A stretch of DNA of 49,068 bases from an uncultured Candidatus Peribacteria bacterium (GTDB taxonomy: Bacteria; Patescibacteriota; Gracilibacteria; BD1-5; UBA2023): NCBI GenBank assembly GCA_964518815.1, contig CAZFLS010000001.1, forward strand, positions 1 through 49,068, read 5' to 3'. A program made the translations under genes and the position numbers. Of this stretch, positions 23,821 to 46,859 are shown one piece after another. Every line of letters begins with the position of its first letter. Positions within the stretch are counted from its first letter, which is position 1. The notes under the pieces are model-generated. The model had not been told where the DNA came from, did not search any database, and was given only the letters and a program-made list of their open reading frames with translations.

Positions 23821-24927
23821 TTATTCAAACATTTTTTCAAAAATACTCTTATTAATATTAATTCCTTTTTCTTCTGCAATCTTTTGATATAATTCTTTTT
23901 CTTTTTTTGAAATACGAGTTGGAGTTTTTAAAATAAGTTTTAAAAATAAATCTCATTTATAATCTGTATTTACATTTTTCACTCAATCTCATTTAAATTT
24001 CAAAATTTCTCAATATTGCGTACCAGGTTTTATTTCAACAATTCTATCTCATAAAACAGGTATTTTGATTTTCTTTTTTGTTCATAAAATTGCTTCTACT
24101 GGTTCTATATCAAAAGAATAATGTAAATCATCTCAATCTCTTTTTAATCATTCTAAATCAGAAGGAACTTTAAATACAATATACAAATCACCGGACTTAC
24201 CTTTTATCGATTCATTTCATTCTCATTTTAATTTAAGTGTCATTCCATCATCTACTCAAGCTGGAATTTCTACTTCTTTTTCTATTTTTTCATTAATTCT
24301 TTTTTCTCAGAAACAAGCACTACATTTTTGTTCTATTATAACTCATTCTCAATCACAAGCAGAACAATACTCTGTCTTTTCTACTACTCAAAAAAATGAT
24401 TGTACTCTTTTTTTTATATGTCCAGAACCATGACAAGTTGTACAAGTTTTCATTCAAGTTCATGGTTTATTTCAGGCTCATCAACATGTTTTACATACAA
24501 TTTTTCTTTCAAATTTAATAGTTTTTTTAATACCAAAAATTGCATCAGCAAAATTTAAATTTATTCTAAATTCCAAATTTTCTCAAGATTCATTTTTTCT
24601 CCTTTTTCAAGAGCCATATTCCGATCATCAAAAAAATGTTTCAAAAATTTCTGACAAATCAAAATCCATATTAAAACCCTGGTTGAATCCTTGATTAAAA
24701 CCTCACATTCAATCCATTGAACCATATCTATCATAATGAGCTCTTTTTTGACTATCAGATAAAATAGAATATGCTTCATTTACCTTTTTAAAATCTGCTT
24801 CTTTACTTTTATCTCAGCCATGTCTGTCTGGATGATGTTCCATAGCTTTTGCTCTATATGCTCTTTTTATTTCATCAGAAGTTGCATTTTTTGATATTCA
24901 CAATATGTCGTAATAATTTTCTGGCAT
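23821..24927 (-). CDS. dnaJ: molecular chaperone DnaJ
   Basis: J domain [35 protein letters not shown], a G/F region and four CxxCxGxG zinc-finger repeats ([32 protein letters not shown]). About 28 Gly are encoded by TGA. Confidence 0.92.
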
Positions 24928-26300: not shown

Positions 26301-27017
26301 ATGAATTTTATAGATTATCATAAAAAATTTAAACAAATTCTCAATATTAAAGAAAACCCAAATAAATATGAATTAGAGCTTTTTAAAAAAACTCAGAAAT
26401 ATGTTAGATTTATCTCATATATTCCTGGTTTAAAATTAGTATGAATTTGTAATAGTCTTTCAATGTATGCAACGAAAGAAAAATGATCTGATATTGATTT
26501 ATTTATTATTACAGAAAAAAATAAACTTTGGTTTGTAAGAATTTTTGCCACTTTTATTTTTCAAATTTTATGAGTTCGTCGCTATGGAAATAAAATAAAA
26601 GAAAGACTTTGTTTGTCATTTTTTATTACAGAAAATGCAATGGATTTTTCAAAAATAGCAATAGAAAATGATATTTATTTATTTTATTGGATTTATTATC
26701 TCAAACCAATTTTAAATAAAGATAATACTTACGAGCTTTTTATAAAAGCTAATAAATCAATGTGAATTGATTATAGTTCTTTGCACGAAGATAATTTGAA
26801 ATATATAAAAATACAAAAATGTGGAAATATAGAAAAAATTTTTTCACCTATTTTAGACTTATTTAATAACATTTTTAAGCGGATATTTCTAGCTAGAACC
26901 TTAAACAAAAAGAAGAATTTATCTAATTCTTCTGGAATTATAATTTCTGATGATATGTTGAAGTTTCATGATAATGATAAAAGAAAGGAAATTAGAGAGA
27001 AAATTTATAATTTATAA
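26301..27017 (+). CDS. nucleotidyltransferase-fold protein (hypothetical)
   Basis: GICNSLSMYATKEKGSDIDLFIIT resembles the GS..D.D NTase motif. ATG at 26301 is in frame with ORF-track fragment 26781..27017. Confidence 0.45.
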
Positions 27018-27166: not shown

Positions 27167-28093
27167 CTAATGTATAGGGATTCTGATATATTTTCTTTTT
27201 CATGTCATAGTCACCCCTGTTTCTGGATTTGATTTTTTTTCATCATAATTAGTAGAATTATTAATAAGTAAAATTTCATTGATTTTTTCTTTGAAACCTT
27301 TTGTAACTTCTTCTTTTGTCTTACAATTAAAAAAATTTCAGTAAGATAATCTATTATAATCACTCAAAACTTTCAAATAACAATCATAGGCTTTAATTTC
27401 TTTTTTTCAAGAAATTATTTCTTTCATATATTCATTAACCACAAGAAAAATAAGATTTGGCTCTGGAATAAGTACAATTCTAGGAAATTTTAATTCATAT
27501 GGATTTTTTAATCATAAAAAATCAGAAAAATCTTTACAACAAGTTTTATGTTTTGATCAATATTTTTTATCTAAAGTTTCTTCATTTTCTGCTGTAGAAA
27601 AGTCTATTGCTATGTATTGTTTATTTTGTTCAGTTTTATCTAAACACATAACATAATCTGCTCATGAATTTACATTGTCATGATAACTTGTGTCAAATAT
27701 ATGACAATTCTTAAATTCATTTAATGAACTAAAATAAGCACGTAACAATTCTCATACCACAATTTCTATAATCTGATTAAATAGAGCATTTACAGTATTA
27801 ATTTCATTAAAATATCAACTTAAATTTTCTTGTGATTTATAATTTTTTTCTTTGTTATTTTTATGATCTAAATAGAATTGTTTGATTCTTTCGGCTTTTA
27901 ATTTTTCACTATTATTTTTATTAATACGATCCAGAAATTCCTTTCTTCATGCAATAGAGTTAACCCAAAAAGTAATTTCAGTGTTTGGAATAATTTTTTC
28001 TGGAACTTTATCTATAAGATTTGCACTATCAAAAGGATTAAATTTATAAGAGTCTTTATCTGATCATAAATGTCAGATTTCTTGATTATGCAT
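27167..28093 (-). CDS. hypothetical protein (308 aa), immediately downstream of the toxin-like gene
   Basis: ATG at 28093 to TAG at 27167-27169, 927 nt in frame. No TM segments or motifs recognised. Confidence 0.45.
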
Positions 28094-28124
28094 ATTTGTT
28101 TTTGTTTTAAATATTATAATTAAA

Positions 28125-31058
28125 CTATTTTTTTAAAGCTAATTCAATATTTTCCTTAGCTTTTGAAGCAATGTTTGTAGCTTCTTTTTTATATTCTGGT
28201 GTTAATAAATCTTGTGTTACTTGATAAGTTGCAATTCATAATGATGAAAAAGTTAAGACTTTTCCTGCTCCTGAACCAATCTTTGCTGCAGTAAGTATTT
28301 TTTCTCACTTAGCACTTTGTCCTAATATAAATAATCCTTCTTTTATTTTTCATAACATTGTTCAATCTTTAGCTATATCAGCTACTTTAGTTGCGGTTTT
28401 TGTTCATTTAATTGAGTTCATTCAAACTCTTGCCCATTGAGATTGTCATAAGGTTACTAGTGATGCTGCATCAGCTAATGTACCAACTACTCAAAATCAA
28501 AACCTAATTCACCTGTCTACTCGTTTTAAATTTCTTCAAGCTAAATCTTGACCTGTAAATGCAGCTTTAAAATCAAGAATTTCACTTGTAATAGGTAATA
28601 ATCAAAATCAAAGCTCAGCGGCATCGTGTTTAAAATTATCTGTTCACCATGATTGTGCAACTGTATATGCTCAAAATCATAAAAATCCTACTTTTAGTCA
28701 AAGTTTACTTGTAGAATAAACTTTTCAAGCTACTGGAACTTTAGATAATCAAGTATCAATAATAACTCAAAGATGACTTAAATTACCAAATATTGCCTGT
28801 GACAACTTGTATCTAGTAGTATTGTCAAAAGAATGTTTATTATATAAACTTTCAATATTTTTTAAATGTGATTCTACTTTTAAAGCTTGTCCTTGGTTTT
28901 TTTTCAAAATTTCTTCATCAATAATTTTCATATCATTCAATGCATTATTTCTTATTATTCATTCTGCTGAATAATCGTTTTTTACAAAAACACCTTTAAT
29001 AGAATCAATAAATCATTCTTTTCCGTTTTTTCTAGCCTTTCTTATTTCTCTTTCTGCATTTTCTGCAATAATCCTTTTATCTCTCGTAAGCTTTTCAACA
29101 AGCTTATTATATGATTCAGCTTCAGTTCTTAATTTTTCTGTAACTCAGTTTAATTCTGCAATTTGTTTAGGGTTTTTAATTACTTCATTAAAATTAGTTC
29201 TATTAGTAACACTTTCTAAAACTTTCGGATTTTCTGTCATAAATTTGTTAAATAATTTGTCTCTTAAGACAGATTCTTTTGATGATAATTCCGTTTTTGA
29301 AATAAGAGCTTCAAGTTGAGTATATTCTTTTATAAGATCTTTATTTTTACCTATTCATAATCATTCTCTTTCTATTCATTCTATTCTCTGTCTTACTGAC
29401 CAACTAGTAAAATGTTTTCATATTTCAAATCTTTTGCCTTTTATCCAATAAAACAATATAGGTGCATCAAGACTCCAATGTAAGGAACCATCTGGTTTTG
29501 TTTCTTTATCCTTTCATCATTCTGTAGTCGCAACTGCTGCTCAAGTAGCCACTGCTCATACTTCTACTCAAGATGTTTCTTTTTTTCAATCTCAAGATTT
29601 TTCAACTTTTCAGTTATTAATTAATGTTCATGTAGAATCTGGAATAATTTTAATCAAAACATCTTCTACTAGTTCATCTCTTCAAAATTTCATTCATTTA
29701 GTTTTTTCTGCTAAATACTCTTTTACTGCTTTCTCATGTTCTTTTTTTACTGGATCTTCTTTTTCAATTCCAATTTTTTCCTTTACATAGCCCTTAAAAG
29801 AATCCCATACTCATCAAATACTAAAAGATGTATTTATATATTCATTTGCTTTACATTGAGAAATTGTTTTTATTAATGCAGGATCAATTTCTTTAGTTAA
29901 TCATTTGCTTTTCTGAATTTCAGCTCAAACTTGTTTTGTATATTCATCAGTTAATTTTGAAGTTTTCATTGAATCAACTCAAAAAATTAATACTTTTATT
30001 GCATCCCATATTTGAAATTTAGCAAATAATTCAAGTGCTTTTGTTAACCTGTTTTCATCAATATTAATATTTAAAGTATCTTTAAAAAATGTCTTTACTC
30101 ATTCAGATTCAAGAGCTTTTCAAAGTCAAAATATTCACAAAACTCATCCTAAAATCCATTTCCAAGCCGATCAGCCTGGTATTTTATCAAATATTTTTGA
30201 TAAAAATCATTCCTCCTTTTTTTCTGATCATTTTGAGTTATCTTCTCACCCAAAAATTCATGAAAATATTTTATATAACCCATAAGCTCAAAGTACGGCT
30301 CATCATACAGCTAAATAAGGATGTTCTTCTGCAAATTTCATTATTGGATTTTTATCAGAAATTTCTGAAGATTTTCATTCTTTTATTTTTTCTTTTATTT
30401 CTTGAATACTAGGAACGCTTTTTTTCGCACTTGATACAACATTATTTAATTTTTCATTTAAATAAATATAAATTGGTTTATCTTTATGATTACAAATTTC
30501 TTTCAATTTTTGTAGAACAATCTTATCTGTTTTATTTAAATTAAGTGTTGAAGAATTTATATTAGACAATTCCTCAAGATTTGTTATTTTTTTTCAGTTT
30601 ACAAGCGCATTATTGATTATTGCAAAAAGAGAAAATTTAAAAAGATTAAAGGCTTTTTTTTGACTTTCTATAGATTCTGTTGGTTTTATACTTAATATCT
30701 CTTTAATTTGTCACAAATGCTCCATATCTGCTATTTCTTTAGAACTTTTTTCAGAATCTAAGCCCTCTTTTAATTGATCTCTTTTTAATTTTGCTGTTGA
30801 TTTTGTTGAAGCTTTTACAGCTTCTTTAGTAATATTTAATTTTTCTTTAATTTTTTCCTTTATTTGTCTCTCAATTTCTTGAGTTTCAATTCAAGATTCA
30901 ATAAATTTTTTCAAATTATCTAATTCTTCTATGGTAAACTCTATTGTTTGTTTAATTTCAGGAATAGACAAAGTTCCGGAAAATCAGATCTTTTCCTTTA
31001 GTTCTTCAAGTGAAGATATTTTTATTTTTTCTAATCAATTTTTATTTTCTGATACCAT
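28125..31058 (-). CDS. 977-aa membrane-associated protein with pre-toxin-TG-like motif and Gly-zipper C-terminus
   Basis: 2934 nt in frame. Helical N-terminus and several hydrophobic Gly-rich segments. LLPITSEILDFKAAFTGQDLAGRNLKRVDRG (about 28505-28602) fits the PT-TG pattern P..TG.D..G..L...R. The C-terminus has AAKIGSGAGKVLTFSSLGIATY. Confidence 0.5.
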
Positions 31059-31088
31059 AAATTTCTTTATAATTTAATAAGTTTATTA

Positions 31089-31769
31089 TTATTGTGTAGT
31101 AGTCCATGACCTTATTCTTTCTAATTTTCTTACAAGTCATAATTTTTCTGCTACATCTGTGGTAACATCTCTATCAATAAATAATGTCTTTGCTCATTTT
31201 GATCAATGTAATTCTAGACCTTGAAAATTACTGGTTAAATCAGCTCACTGTAAGACTTCAATATATCAATCATTATCTTTTGCTTTTATTAATGCATGTG
31301 CTACTGCTAACTTACTTCATTTATTATTTTTATCTATTCTAAGAAAGTGTTTTTTTCAAGAAATATTTACAAGATAAAAATCAAACTCTTTATTATAGGC
31401 CAAAAATCTTTCTGGTATGATATTTCTAATTTCAGACTCTGTAATAGTAAAATCCATAAATCAAGTACGACCTGTTACTCCAATTTCTTTTGCGTTTTGT
31501 TTAGCAAAATATTTAGAATCAAGTTCTTTAAATCTCTTAATAATATCTCCAAAATCTTTAATTAATTTTTCTCTTTTTTTATAATCATCTCAATCAAGTG
31601 GTGCTTCTTGCCAAACTATTAACTTGCTTCTTAAAGATTCTAATTTAGTTTTTATTGTGTTATATAATCTCTCATACTCAAGATATGACATATTAGTTTT
31701 ATCTAAAGTTTTTATATTTGAAGCTAGATTTTTTGATTCTTGAGTATATTCATTAAAAAATTTATCCAT
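31089..31769 (-). CDS. hypothetical helical protein (226 aa)
   Basis: ATG at 31769 to TAA at 31089-31091, 681 nt in frame. Confidence 0.45.
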
Positions 31770-31789
31770 GTAATGCTTTTGATTAAAAA

Positions 31790-31942
31790 TTAAATTTTAT
31801 TTTTTATTCATTTTTTTAATTGTTTTCTTGTTACTTGAGAAGAAAATTTGGTCATATTTTTCTCAAAATTCTTACAAATCTCTTGAAAATCCAAAAGTGC
31901 TTTACAATTATCTTCTATTTCTTCATTATAAGTTTTTGTCAT
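31790..31942 (-). CDS. small helical protein (50 aa)
   Basis: MTKTYNEEIEDNCKALLDFQEICKNFEKNMTKFSSQVTRKQLKKGIKNKI. Same frame as ORF-track 31808..32005, read through its TGA. Confidence 0.35.
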
Positions 31943-31955
31943 AAAATAAATTAAA

Positions 31956-33689
31956 TTAAATTGTAGGTATTGGCGTATTAGACTTTTTTCCAGAAAATTT
32001 TTCATTATCCAATTCTTGATCTACTTCTCATTCCATACTAGAGCTAGTTTTTTCATCAGATTCTTTTGAATAAACAATATTAATTACATCTTTTACTCTT
32101 TTATCCTTAGTTTGTTCTTTGAATTTTTCTTTTGAACCAAATTTTTCAACTCATTTTTTATATAAATCTTCCATATATTTTTTAAATTCTTTTTGTTCAT
32201 TTTTATCTTTTATACCAAAATCAGCAGCACTTTTTCAAGAAATATTTAATACTCAAATAGAATATATATTATCAAAATCATTTTCAATTAAATCATTACC
32301 TAAATATTTATAAGAATTATATACATGCCACTCTGTAAGTTTTTTCTGTCATTCTTCTGTCAAATAATCCCATGATTTTCATACTTTACTTTTTGCCCAA
32401 TTAAAAGCTTCTTCTAATTTTTGTCATGTAGTATCAATTCCTTTTCATACAGTTCATCATTCTATTGATTTTGCTAGTTTTTCTACCAATCAAATACTAT
32501 CTAACACTCAATATGACCCCACAACTGCTAAAATAGTCGCAAATGTCTTTGATCCTCAGTCAAATGGTTTTCAAAAAATCCACCAAACTCAAAGTACTAA
32601 AAGAGACAAAACACAAGCTGGACTCATTTTACCACTCATTTTTCATATAAAATCTAAAGGGTCTCTAACTACATCTGCTAAAGATTGTTTTGTAAGTAAA
32701 TCTTCTGGAATTTTTTCTCAAGTTGCCTTCTCTACATGTTGACCAAGACTTTTTGGGTCTTTTTGTGCATTATCTCTTGCTGATACTCATTCATCTTGAT
32801 GTTTAGCTAAAGAATTTTTATCGTTTATATAAGCTATTAAAAATGTTTTTTCTGTTTCTTTAAGATTAGAATTAAGAATTGATTCTATAATTTTTGGTTT
32901 ATCTTTTTCTTCTATAATATCTGGAAAGATTATTTTTTTCTTTTCTTCTTGTCATATAAAATTTTTATTATGATCATTTACTATTTTTTTAGCTAATTCA
33001 TCAATATTTTTTTCTTTGCCATTCACATCATACATAAAAGAATTTACAACTGTAAGATTATCAAATTCCTCTTTTGTAATATTTTCTTTTATTATTTTAT
33101 TATATTTTTCATTTATTTCTCATCATTTTTGATTTACTACGCTAAGTCAATCTTTTTGGCTCAAAATACATAAATTATTAGAGTAAATAAATTGACTCAT
33201 TATAAAATTTAACATTAAATTTCTAGACGCTTTATCTTTAATTTCATTATTTTTTAGTAATTCAAAAGCTTTTTGTAATCATTTTTCATTTTTTTCTTTT
33301 ATTGAATTAATTTGATTTTTTAAATTTCCTAATTCATCTCAAGTATTTGTTTTTATTTCTTCTTTTTTTATTTTGAATTGTTCAATAAATTTTTGTACAA
33401 TTTCCTTGTCTTTTTCTTCTGATTTTTCTGTAGTCAAACTCTCTTTAAGATTTATAATATCTTTTTTTGAACACTCTATAGTTTGTTTCCAGTCTATTTT
33501 GATTTTATCAATATCTTCATCTTTCATTCATACCTCTTGTAATTTTTGTTTTAACACATCAAAAGTACTAATTTTAAATTTTTCATTAGTATCTTCAGAT
33601 ACTGAAGGATTTTTCTTGTCTAATTGAGCAGCTTCTTTTCAAGTATTTTGTGATCCTTCATTAGTAGGATTTTTAGCTTTATCTACCAT
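31956..33689 (-). CDS. 577-aa membrane protein, hypothetical
   Basis: 1734 nt in frame, including ORF-track fragment 33339..33527. Coiled-coil N-terminal half, hydrophobic segments PACVLSLLVLGVWWIFG and FATILAVVGSYGVL. Confidence 0.5.
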
Positions 33690-33851
33690 GCTTTTATATT
33701 AAAATATAAATTTACTTACTTCTTAATTTTAACATAAAATAAAATAAAGTGCAAATTTTGGAACTCTATTTTTTTGATAAAATATAGACAAATTAGAAAA
33801 TTTATGTTTGATAAAAAAATTTTACTCACATAGGGTATTGGTTCCCGAAAT

Positions 33852-33888
33852 AAAAAAAACAGAAGGTGTTACACTTTCTGTTTTTTTT
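33852..33888. terminator. bidirectional rho-independent terminator
   Basis: A8-CAGAAGGTG-TTA-CACTTTCTG-T8. Confidence 0.7.
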
Positions 33889-33900
33889 GGAAGAGAAATT

Positions 33901-34605
33901 TTAGTAAAAATATAACCTTTCGGAATCACCTTTTTTAAAAATAATAAACTTTTTTCATTGTTTCATTAATTTAATTATTGTTTTGTAATGCTTTATTAAT
34001 TCTTTTGTTATATTAATTTTTTCTCATATTGAAGGTTCTACTACAAATACATCTCAAAACTCAATATCACTTAATTTATTTGAATGATGATTAACTATAC
34101 AAGTTTCATCTGTAAAAAAATTATAAGTTACACCTGATTTAGTAAAACTTGCTTTTTGTCTTTGTCATTCAGGATACGCCTTTATATCAAAAACAATATT
34201 TTTACTTTCTTCTAAAAAATTTGTACGTAAACTTGCAAATTTTTTTGTAAGTTTTTCTAATTTAGACTCATTTGACTCAATAGATTTTCTAGATTTAGTA
34301 GATTTATTATTTACTCAAATTTTTAAAGTATTTAAAATTTTTGTATTAGTTTTTTTCTTTACTTTAGCAATTTTACTACCAGAATTAATATCCTCAAAAG
34401 TAGAAATTATACCATTTTTTTCTTGAAACATTTTAGTTAATTGTTCCTTTCAATATTCAATTAATTTTTCATCACCACTTGTAAGATATGTAATAGCTAA
34501 ATCTAATTCGTTTTTTAATTCTCAATTTTCTCTTGCTGCCTCTACATCAGTTAATTTACCTTCTTGTGCTTCTTCTTCTATAAATCTATGTTTATTTGTA
34601 TTCAT
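33901..34605 (-). CDS. hypothetical protein (234 aa)
   Basis: ATG at 34605 to TAA at 33901-33903, 705 nt in frame. Confidence 0.45.
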
Positions 34606-34701
34606 AATAATAAAATTAAATTAATAAAATATATTGAATCCTGATTATAATAAAATTTAACTTAAAATAAAATTTAATATCAGCTCTAGAAGATTAATAA
34701 A

Positions 34702-35271
34702 TTATGATATATTTGCTCGTGAACCATCTGGATTAAATAATAAAAAGTTTTGACAATCATATTTAGATAAATTTGCTCATGAAAAAATTACTTTATCATT
34801 TTCTATTTCCATTTTTTTATCAAACTCACATGGTTGTAATATTGGTGTACCTCAACTTGTTTTACTTTGTATAAAATGAACTGTAAATGTATTTGTGGCG
34901 GTATTTATTTCTTTTATTTTAATTAATAAATGATTTCATGTGCTATTTGTTCATAAAACTAAAGTAGATCAAGTATTTATACGACCATTAATTTTTGTTT
35001 TTAGATCTGAAGATATAGGGGTCCATAAAGAAGCATATGTCAATAATCTTCCATTTAAATTAGTTAGCTCGCTTTGAATTTGATTATTTACTACAGTTTC
35101 AAAAGCTGTTTTAAAAGCTGCTGCATTCGTAAATTTTCAAATAGATCTTATTCTTCTTATTAATTCTTTATGTACAGCGTCTTTATCTCTTAATCAATTA
35201 TAATCTGTAAGATTTAATCATAAAGTTGCTGCTTGATCAATAATTACTTGTCATATAGTTGAGTCGTCTGC
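34702..35271 (-). CDS. 189-codon open frame with no ATG start, continuing the upstream gene after an in-frame TAA
   Basis: ADDSTIGQVIIDQAATLGLNLTDYNGLRDKDAVHKEL... is open to TAA at 34702-34704, in the same frame as 35272..37509. Checked codon by codon over 35161-35400. Confidence 0.45.
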
Positions 35272-37509
35272 TTAATCAATTGCTTGCAAAGCTTCCGTTA
35301 ATCTTTGATTATTATCATCAACAGTAGTATTTTGATTTGAAGTTGCACTATTTTCAGTTGGTGGAGTTTGATTTCGATATTCTATCTTTTTTCAATATAA
35401 ATCAGGAGTTCAATCATAAATATTATCAACTCTTCAATCTTCATCAAATAAATATATGCTATGAGATCTTGGATCAATTACTTTTCATAAATCAGCCACT
35501 TTCATCCATCTTTTTAATTTCTCCTCATTTCAAGCTGATCTATAAAATTGACATAAAAATTCTCTTTTTTGAGCTGTATTAAGCATATTATAATTAAAAT
35601 TTCCCAACCAAGATGTTCATCTTCAAGCTAAAGATAAAACTCAATCAAGAGCATAAGTAGCGCCTTCAAACATATGATTTATTTCATTAGCTTTTGCTGT
35701 TTTTCTTATAAAATTGATACATGAATCATATCATTTATTTACTACTCCTTCCGTTTTCTCTATTAAAGAATGTGTTCCTGTAGCTCATTTTTCAAGTAAT
35801 TTAGTAAAAGGATATAATACTCATGATATTTTTGCTAATCTAATAAAATTTTTCTTAAAAAATCATCATTCAGCTTTTTTTTCAATAAATTTATTAAATG
35901 CTGATGTTGGTGTAGAAATAATTTTTGATGTTATTTTTCAGGTTCAAGCAATACCTTTTAAAGCTAATTTTATTCATTCTTCTGATAATCTTAATATAGT
36001 GTTTACTGTCGGCATTAAATTTGTTTTAATAATTTCTCTATATTGTTCTGTTCTTCAAATTATTTTTGTAATTTCTTGTAAACCTGTTTCATTTTGTTCA
36101 AAAGGATTTCTATCATTATAAAACATTTCATTTATTGTCCAGTTTTGATTTAATAATAAATCTCTTACTCTATCAAGTTCTCATCTTCAAAAATTCCAAT
36201 CTCTATGTCATTGTAAATTATTATATCTTCTTCTCAAAATTCAGCTTAAGGCATCTCTCATTTGATTTGTTTGTGCTGGAGTGTGATATCATGTAATAGT
36301 ATCTACTGCATTTCTAACTCATTGACGTATAAATCAAACGGAATTTCTATCTAAATAAAATAAAGACTGAAATTTTTCAAAATAACTATCAAGTAATCTA
36401 TTATGAGAATCATCTTCTCATTGTCAACTTAATTCTATTACTCTCTGTCTTGCTATTCATCTCCATTTGTTTACATCTTGATCAAAAAGTTTTTCTCTAT
36501 GTCAAAATGTATCAACTTTACTTTTATTAAATCTTAATCTTGCTTCTTTTAATATTTCTCAAGAAAAATGAGTCAAAAAAAGTTTATCAAATTCCGCTTT
36601 TGATAGCCTATTTTGTCTTAATTCTTCTGCACTAACAGGAAAATCGTTTAATCTCTTTTCTAAATAGTTTTGTTCATTTTTATTATATTTGTTTCAGTTC
36701 TCAATTTGATCTTTATTTCAATCTGTATCAAAAAAATTATTTATAATTTCACCAGATTCTTTTTTTACTATATCTTGGATTTTTTTCATTTGAGTTGGAG
36801 AAAGTACTGAATCTGTATATCAATGACTTGCAACTTCATGTACTTGATTTAAAGCAATCATTAAGTTCTTATAATTTTTATCAAGATTCTCCAATGGTTT
36901 TATATTTTCTAAAAGTTTTTTATAATCATCTTTTATTATTTCTGATACATCTACTCATCTTTTTTGAAGTATAGCTATTACTTCTTTTACTTTCATAATT
37001 GATTGAGCATCTGTTTCTTCATGAAAATCAAGATTATCTGCTAAATCTTCTAAGTGATTTTCTGTGCAAAAATTTCTTATTTTATTAACTATTTTTCCAA
37101 GTTTGTTTAAATCATCCGGGTTTAATCTACATTCAAATCTATTTAAAGCTGCATGTCTAATAATATAGCTTTCAGAAAAATCCGAAGATTTTAATAATTT
37201 TGTTTCTATGTCTTCAACAAGTTCGTTAGTTCTTTGTAAAATTAGACCTCTAGGGCTTAAATCATTTGTTGTAAGCGATATAATATAGTTTATTTTATCT
37301 TTAAGAGATTTACGTTTTTTCAATTCTGCTATTCTAGTCTGATTTCATCTACACTCTTCTTCTAATAAATTATTAACAAGACCTCTCATTCTAATACTTC
37401 AATCTCATCATTCAAGAAGTGATATTAATCTATCAGATCAATCAGATATAGCTGAATTATTAGTAGAAAGCGCATTTTGAGCTGTTATTTCAGGGATATT
37501 TAATGTCAT
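35272..37509 (-). CDS. 745-aa hypothetical protein
   Basis: ATG at 37509 is in frame with ORF-track 36955..37323. Ends ..NQTPPTENSATSNQNTTVDDNNQRLTEALQAID then TAA at 35272-35274. Confidence 0.5.
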
Positions 37510-37670
37510 AATTTCTAAAATTAATTTATATATTACAACCTAATCTTACCATATTTTTAATTTAAACGCAAATTTTGAAGGCTCTTTTTTTATATATATT
37601 AATTTAGATTTAATCTATATTTTATGCCGAAATTTAATTACTTTATTTTTGATTTTAAACTAAATGTTTC

Positions 37671-37700
37671 AAAAAAAGACACAAAATTGTGTCTTTTTTA
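37671..37700. terminator. bidirectional hairpin terminator
   Basis: A7-GACAC-AAAATT-GTGTC-T6, downstream of the toxin gene on the minus strand. Confidence 0.6.
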
Positions 37701-37716
37701 TACCAAATTTCTACAA

Positions 37717-37973
37717 TTATTTATAAATATCGTGATCTCAAATGTTTATAAATAAAACATCGTTACTTTCAGATAATTCAAACATAATTCTGTAATTATA
37801 ATCAATAGAAAACGACCAATATTTATTCAATTTTCAGCTTAATTTATGTGTTCTTAATTTTGGATCAAAAAGATTTTTTCTAAATAGTTTTTCTTTTCCT
37901 ACAGCCAATAATTGAATAATTATTGGTAATCTTTGAAAAGACTTTTCAAATTTAGATGTATAAAATATATTCA
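37717..37973 (-). pseudogene. RelE/ParE-family toxin gene with a frameshift
   Basis: The ATG frame gives MNIFYTSKFEKSFQRLP and then stops at TAG after 24 codons. The rest, IIQLLAVGKEKLFRKNLFDPKLRTHKLSGKLNKYWSFSIDYNYRIMFELSESNDVLFINIGDHDIYK, is in another frame. Total length 257 nt (3n+2). Confidence 0.65.
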
Positions 37974-38140
37974 TTTTATCAAATAAGACTTTTTAAAGAT
38001 TTTAACTTTTTTAATTTTCAAGATTTTTTTTCTTTTTCTGCAATACTTATAGCATCATAAGTATCTAAAATTTCTTTATAGTATTTTAAAGTATCTAGAA
38101 TAGAATTATATTCTTTTTTATCTAAAGTAACTGTTGCCAT
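37880..38140 (-). CDS. putative antitoxin (56 aa to the TGA, 86 aa if TGA is read as Gly)
   Basis: MATVTLDKKEYNSILDTLKYYKEILDTYDAISIGRKRKK.. lies upstream of and overlaps the toxin ATG in an ATGA arrangement (TGA at 37970-37972). The next TAA/TAG in frame is TAG at 37880-37882. Confidence 0.45.
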
Positions 38141-38231
38141 ATAAATACATTAATAATAATTAAATCATATTTATTATATCCATTTCATTTTGAAATCAAA
38201 ATTTATCTAATCCCCCTCCTACTTTCGGCTC

Positions 38232-38251
38232 CCTCCCCTAATTAGGGGAGG
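38232..38251. repeat. perfect 20-nt GC-rich palindrome
   Basis: CCTCCCCTAATTAGGGGAGG, flanked by CCTCC (38215-38219) and GGAGG (38264-38268). Confidence 0.6.
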
Positions 38252-38321
38252 TAGTCAAAGACCGGAGGAATTACTTATTTCCTTAATTCTCAATTCTTAG
38301 TTCTTAGTTCTCATTTCTTCT

Positions 38322-38783
38322 CTAAAATGGAACTTCTTCTAAATCTCATTTTTTCTTCTTTTTCTTAGTTTCTACTACAACTTCTTCATCTAATTCTTCC
38401 TCTTCTTCTTTACTATCTTCAATAACTGTTTCAATAATTTTAGCTTGTTTTTGTTGTGGTAAACCAAGCATTATTAAGCCTTCTCCTATTATTTCTGTCT
38501 TATATTTCTTTACTCAGGTTTTATCTTCCCAATGACTAGTTTGTAATCTTCAATCAATATAGATCTTATTTCACTTTTTTAAATATTGTCATATAACTTC
38601 GGCAAGTTTTCACCAAAAAACAATATTATGAAATTCTATCTGTTCTTTTTTTCAAGAATTGTCTTTCCAAACTCTATTTGTAGCGAGTCCAAAACGAGCA
38701 ACAAATTTTCAAGATGAAGTTTGAGTAACTTCTGGATCAGCCGTAATATTTCCAATAAGATGGACTTTATTTAAAGAAATCAT
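38322..38783 (-). CDS. ssb: single-stranded DNA-binding protein
   Basis: MISLNKVHLIGNITADPEV..FGLATNRVWKD..IEFHNIVFWGKLAEV..KGNKIYIDGRLQTSHWEDK (OB fold), acidic tail ending DLEEVPF. 462 nt. Confidence 0.9.
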
Positions 38784-38990
38784 AAATATAAAAATTAGAA
38801 AATAAATTTGCCAAAATGTAGTAATTTTATTTGATAAAGCTTTTTATTTTAAAAACAAAAAAATTACCGCTAGCACGAAAATAATAATTATTTGATAAAG
38901 AAAAAAACTGAAAAAAATAGGAAAAAGGTATTGGTGAATTTAATTATCTTATATAGTAGCCAAAAATAAAGATGCCAATGATATTAAACA

Positions 38991-39025
38991 AATAATAAAA
39001 ACCTCTCCTAATTTTTAGGAGAGGT
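38991..39025 (-). terminator. rho-independent terminator
   Basis: ACCTCTCCT-AATTTTT-AGGAGAGGT. On the minus strand it is followed by TTTTATTATTTG. Confidence 0.65.
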
Positions 39026-39043
39026 TAATTAAAACTGTAGAGA

Positions 39044-42000
39044 TTATTTAAAATCAGATTTATAATCTATATCAACTTTTGCATCGGGAGCATTAAATTT
39101 TTTTGGACTTTTATGATAATCTAACTGAGCTTTTTGAAAGTCATTTATCTTTTGTATAATTTCTTCTTTTTTTGGTATGTCGTTAAAAGTATATTTCTCA
39201 TCACTAAACACTCAGGTTCAATTAAATTCTAAAACATATTTGCCGTCTTTTTTATATAATTCAATACCACTATTATAAGTATTATTTTTTACTCCCCCTT
39301 GTCAATCCGGTGAAGAATAATTTAAACTCCATTTAGCCACTTCTACCTTTTTTCAATTTTCAAGACTCTTCTCTAATTTTGTTTTGAATTCTGCTGCTTC
39401 CTTTTCTGCTGGTGTTGGTCCTTTTGGTTCTTCTGCTACTGGCACTTCTGGTTTTTTTACTGGTGGTTCCTCTGGTTTTTTCTCAGTTATACCTAAATAC
39501 TTTTTAGCATTTGTATCAATTTTTGCTGCCATAGCAACAAAATTTCAACCTTCTATTTCTGCAAATTTAACATTATTTACCACTTTATATTTTCAAGTAA
39601 GATTAACTTTTTCACCTTTATTTAATTGCGGTCAAACTATTTCTCATTTTGCATTTCTTACATTCAAGTTATTAACAAGAACTTCTGCTTCACCTTTTGG
39701 TCAGTCTTCTTTTAATTCAACTTTACTAAAATCGTGCTCTTTATTGCTAGGTTTTTCTTTGCCTGTAATAGATCGTTTTTTCTTATCTGTACCCGGTTCT
39801 GGTTTTGGTATTACTGGTGGAACTTGAGGAGTTTCCTGAACAATACCATTTCTCAATCTTGTTGAATCTACAGGGAATGTATTATCTAAAGTATCTCTTG
39901 CAAGTAAGACTCAAGCTCAACCTACTCAATAAGCAATGTAAGGCAAAATACTTCGTCATCTTCTTAATGATGGAATTGGTTCTGGGCTTGGAGTTGGATT
40001 TTGATCTCTCCATTTTTGATCTGTAATTAGATATGTTTCTGGATTTGGAGTTGATTCTGAGTTTCTCACTACTCTATTATTAATTTTTTCATTTTGTGCT
40101 CTTCTATTTCTTTGTTTTTCTCAAATTCTTTCTAATGCTTCAATTTCTTTCTGAATTTTTTGTGTTGCTTGTAAATCTCTTATTCAATCAACAATATCAT
40201 CTGCTCTTCTTTCATATACTAGATCTCTTCATTCTGATATATTTTGTATTGTATCTGGATTTTTATTATTAATAAAATCCTGTTCATTAATTAGTTTACT
40301 CTTTTCCAAAGGTCGTCAATTAGCATCAACTTTTTGAATATATATTCTTCATGACACATCACTTTTCATTATATCATAATGCGTTTGTCAATCAGGAGTA
40401 TATTTTATTACTACATCTTCGGGAATTTCATTAAAAACAGTTTTTATATCTTGAGTTAATATTTTACCATCTTTTCAACGTACAGAATTAATAAAACCTT
40501 GTTTTTCTACAGGATAATAAATAGATCTATCAAAAATAACTTCTTTTACATTACCGTAATGTTTGGTACCAATATAAATCTCTGGTTCAATTATTTCACT
40601 ACTATTAGGCTTTTTAATTTCGAGAATTTGATTATAAAAAACTGTGTCAGTGTTTTTATTATTCTGAAATTCTTCTACTTTAAATTTACCAGATTCTTTT
40701 GTAATTAATAAATAATTTCAGCCAACAGTTTTAGTTCCTAATAAAGCAGTTTCACCTTCCATAAGATTATTTAGTTTTAAATTAATTTCGGTTAGAGCTG
40801 CTTCAATATTTTGAGTACCTTCAAGATTAATTTTTTCTGATATTTTAGTTCATCTTGATTCTCAAACTATTCAATTCTCCATTAATATTCTCATTTCTTT
40901 ATAATCAAATTTTTTTCTTAAAATACTAACCTTTTTGGTAATTTCTTTTTGGTTATAGTTATAAACTCATTTTCCTTCTCAAATTTTGTGTGCTTCTAAA
41001 ATTGCCTGTTTTTGTTCTTCTGACAATGTTTTTCATAATAATTCTTCTGCTTTACTTAATCTTGATTCATCAGTTAATCGAGCATTTTTTTCAACTTCAG
41101 CAGGTTTTATTCCAGATCTCTTATATGCTTTTTGTACATTTAAATCATATTGTATCTTTTGTAATTTTAATTGTTCTTTTCAAATTTTTTCTACTTGTTT
41201 TTCTACTTTTTTCTGTCTTCTAGTTTCAAGTACACTTTGTGATTTATCTTTTAATTTTCCTAATCAGTTTTTAATTTTATCTGTAATTTGAAATTTAAAC
41301 TTACTGTCAGTTCTCGTAGTTACTTCTCATATTCAAGCATTTTCATTTACTTCAACTTTTAAATCACCTGATTTTAATATACTAAATCAACCAGCAAATT
41401 TTTCTAAAGCTGGTGAAGCAAAATGTAATCATCATCACATAATAGCCATAAGCGCTAATTCTTGTCATATTTCAGTTATTTCTTTCTCATTAAAAGCATT
41501 TAAATCTCAAGGTAACATAAAGTTAATTCCTGTATAAAGCGCTGGTCAAGTTAATCATTGTTTAATTAATCAATCTACAGCTTTTCTTTGAATTAATTTT
41601 TCTCAAGTTTCAGGAAATATTTTATATACTCTATTAACTAATTTTTCTGCAGCTCAAAAGGATCCAAACATTATTGAATTCGTAATAACTTCTTTTCACC
41701 AATCTGGAGAATTCATAAACCATTCTTGATTCCTAATCCATTTATGTACGGCTGTAAAAGTAAGTCACTCAGTTCATGCTTTTACTACAAATCGGCCAGC
41801 CTGAATTAATTTTCATCTTCTAGTTGTAGACTCTATTGTCCTTACAGTATCTATAATCTGTTTGCCTCTAATACTTTTTCTAGTAATCTCTTCTGTTTTA
41901 ATTGTAATTCAAGCAATCCTTTGAAGTTTTGAAGATGCAGCAAATCATCTTAATAATAATCCTCCTCATAATCTAGCTACTCATCAAGCTATTCATCATG

Positions 42001-43081
42001 AAATTAGCATTGCAGGAACATCATAAACCATAAATCAAATGGCTTGTTGTTGTCATTTTAAAGATAATGTAGTCCATTCATCTTTAATATCTGTAGAATT
42101 TTTAAATGTTTCCCATATTTCTTTTTGACTATCTGGCACTGAAATTCAACCATTTTCTCAAATTACATATTTACCAACATACTTTATTGTTAATTGATCT
42201 TTTATAAATTTTTTATGTAACTCATTATACAAAGTCACTAATTGTTCTTCACTTGTTATATTTGGATTAGTTTTAATAATTTTATCTTTATTTTTATTCC
42301 ATTCATTAATTGCCATTTTTCTAATTTCTCAAGCTGTTTTTTGCATTTGTTTTTCTATGTTTTTATTAATTTCCTGTACATGAGTATCACTTAATTTATT
42401 TTTTCAAGCCAAAAAAGTATCTGCCATTTCTTCAATAAAAGTATCCGTAATTTGAACTTCTCAAACATTTTCTTTTATTACTTTTAGTCAAGCAGCTTTT
42501 ATATTATTTGACCAAGAAGCGTTTTTATTAAAAAATGAGTAGAATTTAGAAAGAATATCTTTATCTGAAATATTATTTTTAAGAATATTCCAAGCTTCAG
42601 GTCATGAAATGTTTTTATTTTTTAATTTATTTATACATATATCAAGTTCTATAATAGCTAATTTTTTAGATTCTTTATTGTACCATTTTATAGAGCTCCA
42701 TTTTGAAGAATCTCTAATTTCATCTCTAACTGCCTCTATTGACCTTACTAAATATCTTACTCACTCATTTCAATTATTTTGAACTTCTCTTTTAAGAATA
42801 GTTGTATCTTTTTTTGCTTCTTCAATAGTTATTTGTTTTAATGACTCAAATTTTTCATCAATTTTTTCTAAACTTATATCTATATTACTTAAAAAATATA
42901 TTATTTTTTGCACTAAAATATTAAATTGTTCTGGAGGAAGAGTCTTATTACTATCTAAATATTTTTCCGCTTTTTCCTTATATGACTTCGCTAAAGTTCA
43001 TCATACTTCCATTCAATTTCTTTCAGTTTTGGCATTTCTTATTTCATTAAACCAATTTTTGTTATGCAATTCTGTACCCAT
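39044..43081 (-). CDS. 1345-aa membrane protein with SH3b-like segment, hypothetical
   Basis: 4038 nt in frame. Central Gly-rich hydrophobic segments (AMLISGGIAGGVARLGGGLLL, LALMAIMGGGLHF), Pro-rich linkers, and EVLVNNLNVRNAKGEIVGPQLNKGEKVNLTGKY..FAEIEGGNFVAMAAKI (SH3b-like, about 39515-39715). Confidence 0.5.
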
Positions 43082-43214
43082 ACTTTTTAAATTAAAAAAT
43101 AATTTGTTATATACCTTTTAACTTTATCATAAATCGTTTTTTCTGTCAAAAATCTGAGGCTCTTTTGACTCTATAGTTAATGATAACATATATTTTAAGC
43201 TAATTTTAAGTTCT

Positions 43215-45350
43215 TTATCTAATTTCTCAAATTAGCTCTCATTTTTCATTTTTTATATTAGCTATTCAATCTTTTAATAATAAGATAATCATTTCAGACA
43301 TTTTTTCCTTTGAGATAGATTCAGTTTTAGATAAAAATCATTTTTTTCACTTTAATTCAAAATTTTCACCATTTACTCAAATTGATTCTATATAACTTCA
43401 AGCTGGATTAGAAATTTTAACAATATAATTATTGCTTCAAATAGTTAATTTTCATTCTAAATCAGTTTGATTAGAAATATAATTTATCTTTTTTCAATTT
43501 TCTAAGGCTATGGGAAATGTTGTTGCTTTTTCTATTGCTGTTTTTACTTTATCAAAATTTAATACTTCAGGATGGTTTTGTAAATCAGTTTTTGGTTGAT
43601 TAGTAGTCTTTTGTTCTTGTTCAAATTGTTGTTTTTCGGATTTTAAAGTATCAATATTAATTCCCGCTTTTTGTAATAAATTTTTTCTTTGATAGGAAAT
43701 AGTCTCAAATGTAACTGGATGAGTTAATGTATTAAGATAATCCCGAACTTTTTTTACACTAAATAGTTCAACATATGTTTGTAATATTCATAATATTTCA
43801 GATTGTTTAGATTCTTCTTTAATAGAATTTTTAACTTTTAAAATATATTGTCAGTTATCAAAATCAGTCAAAGTAATATTTTTTAATTTTCAAATAACAG
43901 GATTTATAACAAAACTAGAGTTTAGATCTATATACTTTTGATTACCTTTTACTCTATTCGCAAATTCTAATTTTTGTTGTTCTATTTTTGCTTGTTCTGT
44001 TTTCTGTGATTCTTCTTTGTTTTTTTTATCTACATCTGCTTGCTTCTGTTTTTCTAAATTTTCAATATTATTTAAGTCATTAAAAAAATTATCATTTGGT
44101 TTTTTATTAGAAAAATCAAAATGAATATCTTTTATTTCTGGAATTTGTATTTCTTTTACTACTTCAATTTCTTTTGCATCATCTTTTGGATCTTTTTCTT
44201 TAATTTTAAAGCTGGTTTTTTTATTTTCAAAAACATTTTTCCAAAAATTCTCATCATTTATATCGGCTCATTTGTCATTACAATACTTAAAAAATGGTTT
44301 TAGTTTTTCAGTATCAATTCAAGATAAATCTTTATCTTTTAAAATATCAATTTTTGAAGTACTATTTGGAATTAATGTTCAATTTTCTGAAATTTTAGCT
44401 CAAAAAGATTTTAGATTTTTTATAGATTTTCTTATATTAGCCTCAAAATTAATTCAAGTTATCATTTCATTTCAGGTTTTGTAGCCAAATATTTTTGCAA
44501 TAAAATCTCAAATAGGAGATCATAAAATCCAATCAAAAATTCCCTTTGCGAGTGGAAAAGTAAAAACAATATCTAAAATTTTTTCTTTAATTTCTCATCA
44601 AGCAGAAATTAAAGCAATTTTTTCATTTAAATTAGTAATATCTCATTTTAATCATTCTAAATATTTTGTTAATTCTTCTTGACTTAATGTTTGTATTTTT
44701 GAAATATCAATACCTTCTTTATATTCTGCTATGGCTTTTGGATTAGATAGAAATTTATCTAATCAAACAGGTTTTGGATTTTTATTTACCAAATCTATAA
44801 TTAATTTTAAATTATCATCAATTATACTATTAAGTATAGTATCACCTACTTCTCTTTTAAAATCTTCTCATTTTAAATTTAACATTTTTATTAATCAGCT
44901 TTCTTTATTTTTATCTTCTTCTGATCTTTTTTCCTCATCTCAAATTCATAAAAAAGATGTTATTTTACTAGTAATATCAATTTTATCTGAAAATCACGCA
45001 AATACTTTTTTCATATCTGGATTGTTAATAATCTTATCGACCGCAGCAACTTTGATATTGTTTTTTTGATCGGGAGTAACAGAAACATTTTTTAGTTTTT
45101 CATCTATATAACTATCTATATATTTTCTTACTTCTTGCAAAAATGGTATTTTTTCTCATTCAAAAATTGTATCCAGATTTGATTTTCAAGAATTTTTTTC
45201 TACTTCAGTTTTTAACTCTGCTGTCTGTTCTTGAGTTCAGTTTAAAACAGATCGTTTCTCTTCTACAGGCAAATTTGATTTTGGTTGTTCCACTGGTTTT
45301 GATTGTTCTGCTAATTTTGATCATGGATTAGCCGCTAATTTATCAGCCAT
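43215..45350 (-). CDS. 711-aa hypothetical protein
   Basis: ATG at 45350 to TAA at 43215-43217, 2136 nt in frame. Lys/Glu-rich, no motif recognised. Confidence 0.45.
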
Positions 45351-45424
45351 AAAATAAAACATTAAAAAAATATTATCAAAAATAAGATAACATATAATGC
45401 ATAAAAATGCAAAAAATGAGAACA

Positions 45425-45454
45425 AAAAGTAACAAGTTGCAACTTGTTACTTTT
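45425..45454 (-). terminator. perfect 14-bp hairpin terminator
   Basis: AAAAGTAACAAGTT-GC-AACTTGTTACTTTT. Overlaps the rlmD-like stop codon and has a T-rich tail on the minus strand. Confidence 0.6.
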
Positions 45455-46859
45455 AACTTACTACTTGTAACTTAACTATTGTCTCAATATGATGTGTATG
45501 TGGAAACATATCTACAGGAATAATATCTATAATTTTATAGTTTGAATTTTTTACAATAAAATCTAGGTCTCTTACTAGTGTTGCAGGATTACAGCTAACA
45601 TAAATTATAATTTTCGCTTGAAATTCTAAAATGTCTGGTAAGGATTTTTGATTAATTCAATCTCTTGGGGGATCAATAATTAAGACATCTGCTTGTTTTA
45701 TTTTTTTTATATAATCTTTCAAAAAATCTTCGGCACTTGTATTTATAAATTCAACATTTTTTACTCAATTTAAAATTGCATTTTTCTTACCATCTTCACT
45801 TGCTTCTTTTACAATTTCTACACTATATACTTTATCAAATCTGCTTGCAAGTAATATTCATATTGTTCCTGTTCAAGCATAAATATCCAATAAAACTCAG
45901 GTATTTTTTCAAACTAAATCCAAAACTTTTTTATATAATATTTCCGCTCAAAAGGAATTTGTCTGAAAAAAACTTTTTGGTCAAATTTCAAAATTATAAT
46001 TCAAAAGTTTTTCTGTAATTATTGGTTTTCAAAAAATTAAATTATAATCTCATTGTACAATATCTGCTTTTCACGGATTAAAAAGCAAATAAATTGATTT
46101 TATATTTTCATACTTTTTTTCTAATTCATTTATAAAATCTAGTATTTCTTTTTTAGCTTTTGGAGTAAATCAAGAATCAAGATTATTTACACTAAAAATA
46201 AGCATTATTTCCTGAGTATAAAATCATTTTCTTACAACTAAATGCCTCCAAAATCAAATTTGCGTTTTTTGATCATATGTAGACAAACCGGATTGCCTAG
46301 AAAATTTATCTACATCTTTAAATATGTCATTTATTTCATCTGAAGCAAGTACACAATAAGTACAATTTATTATTCTATCAAATTCTGCCTGTTTATGAAA
46401 TCAAAAACGAAAATTATCTCTTATATTTTCCTTATCTGAAATGTATTTTCACCAAGAAAATTCTACTTTATTTCTATATCAATAAATATTTTGTGAAGAA
46501 ATTATATTATGAAATTTTGTATTTATTACATAATCTTTAATGCTATTGAAAGATTCTATTATTTGTTTTTCTTTTATTTCAAGCTGTTTTTCATACAAAA
46601 TTGGTAACCATTTACATCATCCATAAACTTGAAAATGAGAAGGTAAGTTTTCTTCAAATGGAGATTTTTTAACTGTATCTAAAAGTTGTGTTTCAATATA
46701 ATTTGATTTTATTTTTATAACTCTCAAATTAACTATGCTTTCTGGAATTACTCATCAAGTAACAATAATAGTTTTGCCTGAATAACTTCTTGCAAGACCT
46801 TTTCATCAAAAAATTAATTTTTCAATAAAAATATTTTCTAATATATCTCATTTTTTCAT
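45453..46859 (-). CDS. 23S rRNA (uracil-C5)-methyltransferase RlmD/RumA family
   Basis: TRAM-like N-terminus. CKWLPILYEKQLEIK, GFHKQAEFDRIINCTYC, FFQTNS, LLDIYAGTGTIGILLA (motif I), LIIDPPRDG, IIYVSCNPATLVRD and PVDMFPHTHHIE. Confidence 0.85.

Follow-up and report, generated by a model that had tools for sequence, protein, structure and literature searches.

A class-restricted module of large predicted membrane proteins, including a PT-TG protein with an exchangeable tail, in a Gracilibacteria genome that uses genetic code 25

An 18-kb block of large co-directional genes

The stretch of DNA analyzed here (the window, 49,068 nucleotides) is one entire contig, CAZFLS010000001.1, from an uncultured Candidatus Peribacteria bacterium of the class Gracilibacteria, whose genome of 1.33 Mb is distributed over 235 contigs. 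The minus strand of the window between positions 27167 and 45425 is packed with co-directional open reading frames when it is read under translation table 25, in which TGA specifies glycine. These frames encode proteins of 308, 977, 226, 71/50, 577, 234, 745, 85, 54, 153, 1345 and 736/715/711 amino acids, which agrees with the single-strand arrangement and the gene sizes given in a preliminary description of this block made from the sequence alone. Under table 11, the longest frame that stays open between 25 and 49 kb is 147 amino acids. The genes of the block are thus real under code 25. Our comparisons indicate that the large proteins belong to families that recur within Gracilibacteria, and we tentatively propose that the block is an accessory module acting at the cell envelope or in contact between cells. 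The features of the block, in the order in which they are transcribed, are as follows.

45425..45454, minus strand: terminator of the upstream gene rumA (hairpin and T-run), forming the upstream border of the block
43215..45425, minus strand: family A protein P0013; longest frame 736 aa, with a TTG start
39044..43081, minus strand: family B protein P0012, 1345 aa, a mosaic
39000..39026, minus strand: intrinsic terminator after P0012, a 12-bp stem and then a T-run
38322..38783, minus strand: accessory ssb, P0011, 153 aa (PF00436)
37976..38140, minus strand: putative antitoxin P0010, 54 aa, just 5' of the toxin; no family match
37717..37974, minus strand: RelE-like toxin P0009, 85 aa (phrog_1213), with a hairpin and T-run at ~37672-37700
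35272..37509, minus strand: family C protein P0008, 745 aa, predicted all-alpha, ending at an in-frame TAA
34702..35271, minus strand: 189-codon open continuation of the P0008 frame, containing the 113-aa TTG-initiated frame P0007
33901..34605, minus strand: P0006, 234 aa, no homologue found; strong terminator at ~33852-33888
31956..33689, minus strand: family D protein P0005, 577 aa
31790..32005, minus strand: P0004, small helical frame of 71 aa (50 aa from the ATG at 31942)
31089..31769, minus strand: family x protein P0003, 226 aa, helical N-terminus and small beta domain
28125..31058, minus strand: family E protein P0002, 977 aa, PT-TG domain and Gly-rich tail
27167..28093, minus strand: P0001, 308 aa, the final gene of the block

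Translation of P0013 is likely to begin at the ATG at 45362 (715 aa) or at 45350 (711 aa). We prefer these starts because the rumA terminator overlaps the TTG codon that opens the longest frame.

The large proteins form recurrent families with a conserved gene order

The large proteins had been described as orphans, and this is incorrect. Homology searches indicate that five of them, together with one small helical protein, belong to families that recur among Gracilibacteria at 22-54% identity, which we designate A (P0013), B (P0012), C (P0008), D (P0005), E (P0002) and x (P0003). Relatives are referred to below by genome number, with G000 denoting the genome under study. The order of the families here is A-B-C-D-x-E. 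It is B-C-D-x-x-E in G120, C-D-x in G067, and C-D-E in both G116 and G087, where the homologues of P0008 and P0005 adjoin E with their order kept. In G001, a member of the same genus, D-x-E is found on one contig and C lies at the edge of another. For G007, hhalign gives the arrangement A-C-D-E at probabilities of 81-97%, and a metagenome contig (L057) carries A-?-C between grpE and femAB.

Individual families behave consistently across these loci. Homologues of A measure 577 aa in G116 and 582 aa on the metagenome contig (30-31% identity), and further members of 673 aa in G007 and 740 aa in G067 were found by hhalign. Homologues of x reside between D and E in G120, G067 and G001. Full-length homologues of P0002 occur in G116 and G087, which belong to another taxonomic family, at 30-32% identity, and a profile search adds full-length members from G120 and G003. 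With P0012, P0002 or alignment A1 as the query, word-indexed searches for homologues yielded nothing beyond the query's own entries, most likely because words rich in K and E saturated the list of candidates. Taken together, these comparisons firmly support the existence of a multi-family module with conserved gene order that is restricted to one class.

The module is rare as well as restricted. When 1.84 billion proteins were searched exhaustively with P0008 by HMMER, just 61 representatives emerged. Among 401 genomes of the class, the C profile has matches in 7 (7 of 230 genera, in three families) and the E profile in 39 (34 of 230 genera), and both families were found only in the class Gracilibacteria. 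Comparison of relatives yields a conserved order and a patchy distribution, and the earlier characterization of the block as lineage-specific stands.

Divergence within the module is extreme. Relative to the same-genus genome G001, the flanking RumA protein is 66% identical, D is 47%, C is 44%, x is 26%, and E is about 27% in its N-terminal part only. In G002, another genome of the genus, searches for B, C and E came up empty, and D was not among the families searched. The C protein of G003, a genome of our own family, shares 54% identity with its counterpart in G116, from another family, but only 25% with ours. Paralogues of the block proteins elsewhere in their own genome were not found, except for ssb. 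These observations, along with the exchange of E tails described below, constitute a strong sequence-based case for extreme divergence, for a patchy distribution in conflict with taxonomy and for tail swapping. Pressure from an arms race would account for the divergence, the swapping of modules and the patchy presence.

Features of the large proteins

The large proteins have no significant match in Pfam, NCBIfam or PHROGs, and within the block these databases recognize only the SSB protein and the RelE-like toxin, the two genes that had been singled out from sequence inspection. No credible Walker A motif or other P-loop is evident in any block protein. The initial impression that the large proteins lack enzymatic and ATPase motifs is thereby borne out. 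Searches of PDB by sequence and with profiles from alignments A1, A2 and A3 produced only coiled-coil noise (E >= 0.05).

The proteins are mostly helical, and hydropathy analysis reveals the Gly-rich hydrophobic segments that had been anticipated. These are predicted to form two-helix hairpins in P0002 (residues 251-316), P0005 (358-402), P0012 (347-377) and P0013 (262-300; weak, single), and P0012 has an additional late transmembrane helix at residues 1043-1061. P0008 has no strong transmembrane segment. No hydrophobic, signal-like N-terminus was seen by hydropathy in any block protein, suggesting that the proteins are made without Sec-type signal peptides. P0005 has a helical N-terminal half, and its N-terminal stretch is similar to that of P0002. 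Residues 24-63 of the final protein, P0001, resemble residues 112-151 of P0003, and no homologue of P0001 was found 3' of E in any relative compared.

P0012 is a mosaic. A helical N-terminal part is followed by a cluster of several weak Gly-rich hydrophobic segments (347-560, by hydropathy) that has no VirB6, TrbL or PrgH match in Pfam, then by a helical ‘AILEAHxxG’ domain (657-742) and a beta-rich region (750-1000). Beyond these are the late transmembrane helix, Pro-rich linkers of the kind noted in the preliminary description, a weakly SlpA/SH3b-like segment (1131-1185) and a conserved domain at ~1220-1345. The 80-aa helical domain at 657-742 (window region 41056-41113) has the motif L..eQ..AIleAH.iG...Y....l.kK..iL...G.s..E.R.LmE.G.cG and belongs to no Pfam family; it recurs in otherwise unrelated Gracilibacteria proteins (loci L005, L007, L008 and L010). 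The C-terminal module of B likewise recurs in G018, where it lies directly 3' of rumA, in G036 and in G003. The SH3b-like wall-binding segment proposed for B has sub-threshold support. Residues ~1122-1189 score 22.4 bits against SlpA, just below the 23-bit cut-off, and the homologous module of G036 matches SH3_3 with E 0.0015. Nothing exceeds a cut-off, and an AF2 model of the segment has predicted strands, a pLDDT of ~50-60 and no Foldseek match.

Family C has a conserved body of ~700 aa and C-termini that cannot be aligned. An AF2 model of P0008 based on a 20-sequence alignment is all-alpha, with long helices (pLDDT 65, pTM 0.64). Foldseek found nothing at E < 0.04 for this model in PDB and BFVD, or for a model of the P0012 C-terminus in PDB. 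The P0008 frame ends at the TAA at 35272-35274, and the same frame is open and coding-like for 189 more codons, as the preliminary description had proposed. This continuation holds a small beta motif like that of P0012 764-816 (iE 0.007-0.014). We considered whether it is the missing C-terminus of a family C protein and rejected this idea, as it has no homology to the C-termini of P0008-family proteins. The TAA and the open frame beyond it could reflect decay, an assembly error or something else. Separately, genome searches recovered in-frame TAAs inside the C homologue of G067 (n=2).

Large, signal-less, helical proteins of this kind invite comparison with the terminal-organelle proteins of mycoplasmas (HMW1-3, P65 and P200), which are large, lack signal sequences, form coiled coils and are Pro-rich. 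HMW1-3 and P65 resemble the block proteins also in being operon-encoded in a wall-reduced or tiny attached bacterium. The block might accordingly encode a scaffold, cytoplasmic or membrane-bound, that supports an attachment structure at the cell pole, with nothing being delivered to the host. The absence of signal peptides, the long helices of the P0008 model, the Pro-rich linkers and the K/E-rich, coiled-coil-like regions are all compatible with such a scaffold, as is a hairpin topology that keeps both ends of the protein in the cytoplasm, and epibiotic relatives are known to attach through a defined contact zone (PMC8080830). Yet an attachment organelle should be conserved across an attached lineage, whereas the C and E families occur in 2-10% of genomes, and so the module is accessory and not core. 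Moreover, there is no homology or other sequence relation to the mycoplasma proteins, and the PT-TG domain and the tail swapping described next indicate conflict and not architecture. We therefore regard the scaffold explanation as very doubtful.

Family E proteins carry a predicted PT-TG domain followed by an exchangeable tail

P0002 is composed of a conserved 80-aa N-terminal domain, the Gly-rich hairpin (251-316), a helical middle region, a PT-TG region (813-859, with the motif LPITSEILDFKAAFTGQDLAG) and a tail of 118 aa. The match of P0002 itself to PT-TG (PF14449) is below the cut-off (15.3 bits, E 0.02). The domain is matched by 3 of 5 E-family members, the best with E 1.6e-5, and scores of 46.7, 28.7 and 23.6 bits, above the curated cut-off of 23.5, were obtained for relatives from the class that the E profile recovered. 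The motif LP...D...G.DLAG is also conserved in the C-terminal region of E. These similarities indicate that family E carries a true PT-TG domain.

The segment that follows this domain appears to be exchangeable. At least three unrelated types can be distinguished among the last 150 residues of E proteins. Type I, which in P0002 is Gly-rich and hydrophobic, is present in G000, G116 and G087; type II is present in G001, G003 and G007; and type III is present in G120. The tail types follow neither taxonomy nor the similarity of the N-terminal parts. The E proteins of G000 and G116 are 31% identical in their N-terminal part and 51% identical in their tails, and the tails of G000 and same-genus G001 cannot be aligned. 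The tail of ~120 aa has thus, as judged from these alignments, been swapped as a module between lineages. At the opposite end of the protein, the first 80 residues form an unclassified domain that also begins other large proteins of other genera, again at the very N-terminus. A side observation from the genome searches is an in-frame TAA inside the E homologue of G087 (n=1).

PT-TG is known as a module of antagonistic or contact systems, and loci for LXG/PT-TG proteins have genes for small helical proteins directly upstream (PMC13483458). By this precedent, the block could be a strict polymorphic-toxin cassette, wherein E would be a secreted PT-TG toxin with a membrane-damaging tail of ~120 aa, P0003 and P0004 would act as Lap-like helical partners in its export and P0001 would confer immunity; C could be another toxin, its variable tip being the 189-codon piece. 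Several likenesses recommend this explanation. As in PT-TG ‘singleton’ or other polymorphic toxin loci (PF14449; LXG/WXG substrates of T7SSb, and T6SS and CDI toxins; PMC13483458), E has a C-terminal PT-TG domain and a short, swapped tail that is Gly-rich and hydrophobic, small helical proteins are encoded just upstream, and the locus is hypervariable and patchy. The conserved body and unalignable C-termini of family C would also fit. The differences from such loci, however, are substantial. First, Pfam and NCBIfam reveal no trafficking domain in E (LXG, WXG, PAAR/Rhs, TPS or signal peptide), the N-terminus is not hydrophobic, and no known toxin domain is present in the 15 E-family members scanned. 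Second, the gene 3' of E does not co-vary with tail type, being unrelated among G000, G116 and G087 and between G001 and G003, and this argues against a classical pair of toxin and immunity genes. Third, E is here a protein of ~1000 aa with an internal Gly-rich transmembrane hairpin, encoded within an ordered five-family module. Finally, the organism is a code-25 Patescibacterium, and no T7SS parts were seen in the block. We consider the strict cassette unlikely. Because they lack known toxin and trafficking domains, E-family proteins can best be likened to the ‘PT-TG singleton’ group (PMC13483458).

Matches to the E profile include lineages that use the standard code and have 42-55% GC. The distant standard-code relatives are solitary genes that adjoin housekeeping genes. 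Independently of the module, a standard-code family (f31; genomes G249, G290, G418, G410 and G445, loci L084-L088) has a conserved trio of genes next to ndk. Two of them code for proteins of ~590-800 aa, although G290, where the contig ends, shows just one, and the third codes for a protein of ~1130-1290 aa with a PT-TG-like region. Pfam annotates none of the three.

The block and the type IV secretion system

The preliminary description allowed that the block might be an unrecognized secretion or transfer apparatus. In this explanation, its proteins would be the missing, diverged membrane parts of a type IV secretion system (T4SS), such as VirB6-like, VirB8-like or wall-spanning components, or else substrates and effectors delivered to a host. 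VirB6 homologues have indeed been reported as absent from Gracilibacteria, ‘suggesting extreme sequence divergence’, and the T4SS genes of these bacteria as scattered (PMC12102498). Every genome checked (13 of 13), this one included, carries a single VirB4-like ATPase, which here is AAA_10-like and located on contig C131. In G226 (locus L074, C1:175001-195000, and L069), genes for a VirB4-like ATPase (P-loop_TraG/AAA_10), for a protein of 330 aa and for a T4SS_pilin protein are grouped, and ~11 kb from this group is a row of genes for proteins of 1533, 1124, 350 (NlpC/P60), 1002 (weak match to PF07996, VirB5/TrbJ-like) and 1228 aa, the last a member of the C family. In G222, an SLT transglycosylase gene adjoins an E-like gene. 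The resemblance to conjugative T4SSs of monoderm bacteria, with their VirB6-like PrgH/TcpH/ConG proteins and PrgK/CwlT-type hydrolases (PMC12102498), hence lies in a row of large membrane proteins, in wall-hydrolase genes within the clusters of some relatives and in the presence of a VirB4-like ATPase in the genome.

The remaining evidence speaks against this assignment. A core part should track the ATPase, which is universal in the genomes checked, but C and E occur in only 2-10% of class genomes, and VirB4 and the C/E clusters are on different contigs in G000, G116, G087, G003 and G120. For these two reasons, we argue that the block proteins are not core T4SS parts. The block also lacks a VirB4 ATPase, and neither a coupling protein nor a relaxase was matched among its proteins in Pfam, NCBIfam or PHROGs. 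By hydropathy, its hydrophobic segments resemble weak hairpins more than polytopic cores of the VirB6 type. An identity as T4SS components or cargo is rather improbable, though block proteins may yet be T4SS substrates.

Chromosomal slot and possible mobile elements

Upstream of the block is rumA (45453-46859), coding for a RumA-type methyltransferase, and downstream are a conserved gene for a 238-aa protein (26301-27017) and dnaJ (23821-24927). This slot between rumA and the homologue of the 26301 gene with dnaJ is conserved in four other genera (G012, G013, G017 and G018; loci L024, L025, L031 and L035), where it holds 6-12 kb of other genes for giant co-directional proteins (1326, 1206 and 943 aa in G013). 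The possibility that these giants are diverged C, D or E proteins found no support in hmmsearch or hhalign, and only B-like pieces are shared. These comparisons identify the rumA-dnaJ slot as a hot spot for large envelope-type genes and the A-E module as an accessory occupant that is also found at other positions.

Two additions to the block are recognizable. The first, P0011, is a full SSB domain (PF00436, E 2.2e-36) and one of three ssb genes in this 1.3-Mb genome. The copy on contig C30 (1002-1427), within rpsF-ssb-rpsR, is the housekeeping gene, and those on contig C28 (8187-8663) and in the window, which are 58% identical, are extra paralogues. The second is a putative toxin-antitoxin pair. 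P0009 matches phrog_1213 (RelE-like) over its full length with E 2.3e-6, and P0010, which has no family match in NCBIfam, immediately precedes it: the antitoxin frame ends TTG ATT TGA(Gly) TAA (window 37970-37978), one base before the toxin ATG, with no run-on into the toxin gene. The ssb gene and relE each have their own terminator-like hairpin, and both are absent from the C locus of same-genus G001 and from the other relatives' loci compared. Accessory ssb genes and RelE/ParE modules are familiar from plasmids, phages and islands, and the similarity extends to the small partner gene upstream of relE. Here, in contrast, they stand alone between two module genes, with their own terminators and no other mobile-element genes. 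These genes are best read as a small, mobile, later insertion between B and C and not as parts of the module. Thus, the earlier view of ssb and the toxin-antitoxin pair as typical of mobile DNA is sound for the genes themselves, but, being absent from the relatives' modules examined, they are no sign that the entire block is mobile.

If the entire 18 kb were cargo of an integrated mobile element, such as an integrative and conjugative element or a prophage remnant, then the extra ssb paralogue, the RelE-type pair and the patchy, taxonomy-incongruent distribution would be readily understood, and the window does contain a serine recombinase, a recombinase remnant and its sole tRNA, a tRNA-Asn (20695-20769), outside the block. 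Against this possibility, Pfam and PHROGs searches reveal no integrase, relaxase, ATPase, capsid or tail genes in the block. PHROGs matches are limited to RelE-like proteins, P0008 has no fold match in BFVD, and no att sites or direct repeats flank the block beyond AT-rich noise. The nearest recombinase (4393-6096) is 21 kb away, past dnaJ. Furthermore, rumA and the 26301 gene with dnaJ frame a slot that is kept in four other genera, the module occurs in differing chromosomal contexts with no shared mobility genes, and the same-genus module is devoid of ssb and the toxin-antitoxin pair. We see little chance that the block as a whole is such an element. The term ‘island’, which had been applied to the block, suits its accessory, patchy and taxonomy-incongruent character, but not the lack of an integrase, att site or transfer gene, nor the conservation of the slot itself.

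A candidate envelope or contact module

As to how Gracilibacteria and Absconditabacteria recognize, attach to and exploit their hosts, published genome papers name nothing beyond pili and anonymous ‘giant membrane proteins’ (PMC8080830). The preliminary description suggested a role for the block at the cell surface or in interaction with a host, and this suggestion gains from the membrane hairpins, the weak wall-binding domain, the PT-TG domain and the hypervariability, while remaining conjectural. From these sequence characteristics, we tentatively favor the view that the block is an accessory, rapidly diversifying envelope or cell-contact (conflict) module with the PT-TG protein as its membrane-acting end, an account that we regard as quite possible without calling it probable. 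In this view, the epibiont would assemble the proteins of the module at its cytoplasmic membrane and envelope. B would fasten the assembly to the wall, and C, D and x would assist as a helical scaffold or in the manner of chaperones. On contact, E would face the envelope of the partner or host cell with its PT-TG region and tail, leading to adhesion, insertion or damage.

Several observations weigh against this proposal. The block proteins contain no known trafficking, toxin, adhesin or enzymatic domain in Pfam, PHROGs or NCBIfam. A two-helix hairpin in a protein lacking a signal would leave most of that protein in the cytoplasm of the producer, barring some unknown export route. The type I tail is fairly well conserved between distant genomes (45-51%), unlike a freely polymorphic toxin tip, and the tail is not accompanied by a co-varying gene 3' of E. 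Given its solitary standard-code relatives, E alone might be an ordinary envelope protein. Model confidence is only moderate, with a pLDDT of 57 for the P0012 C-terminus as well as the 65 obtained for P0008, and no Foldseek match emerged. Lastly, the envelope or contact role is predicted from sequence.

A further comparison is with the Inc proteins of Chlamydia and other translocated membrane effectors of type III secretion systems and T4SSs, which lack signal peptides, have a bilobed hydrophobic hairpin, evolve rapidly and are restricted to particular lineages. Like them, the block proteins are signal-less, fast-evolving and lineage-restricted, with one two-helix hairpin flanked by large hydrophilic helical domains. 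They differ in having no sequence relation to these effectors and in that any delivery to another cell is hypothetical. We know of no injectisome in Gracilibacteria. In a bolder form of the envelope or contact proposal, which we find conceivable but quite unlikely, the A-E hairpin proteins would constitute a new, self-contained contact-dependent system in which a wall-tethered assembly drives E, exchangeable tail included, into a host or rival membrane. If true, this would represent a new route of cell-to-cell delivery or of predatory membrane breaching with no known secretion ATPase encoded in cis.

Regardless of which mechanism applies, an anonymous block can now be described as defined families with a conserved order, a chromosomal hot spot and a PT-TG protein with swappable tails. 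PT-TG proteins are thereby extended to a code-25 lineage of the Candidate Phyla Radiation, in an architecture that has no known trafficking or toxin domain, and the block offers candidate determinants of host range or antagonism.

Transcription units and the ssb palindrome

The block had also been described as partitioned by strong terminators. Hairpins followed by T-runs are present 3' of rumA, P0012, relE and P0006, and a GC-rich palindrome is present 3' of ssb, suggesting that the block comprises ~5 transcription units. The individual sites support the partition, but an overall scan with a consensus terminator found 3 compared to 2.8 expected from shuffling and is therefore not above chance. 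The palindrome after ssb is a perfect, GC-rich element of 20 nucleotides (CCTCCCCTAATTAGGGGAGG) at window positions 38232-38251 that is not followed by a T-run. It resides within a larger fold of -39.6 kcal/mol that spans the 181-nucleotide spacer preceding the antitoxin gene.

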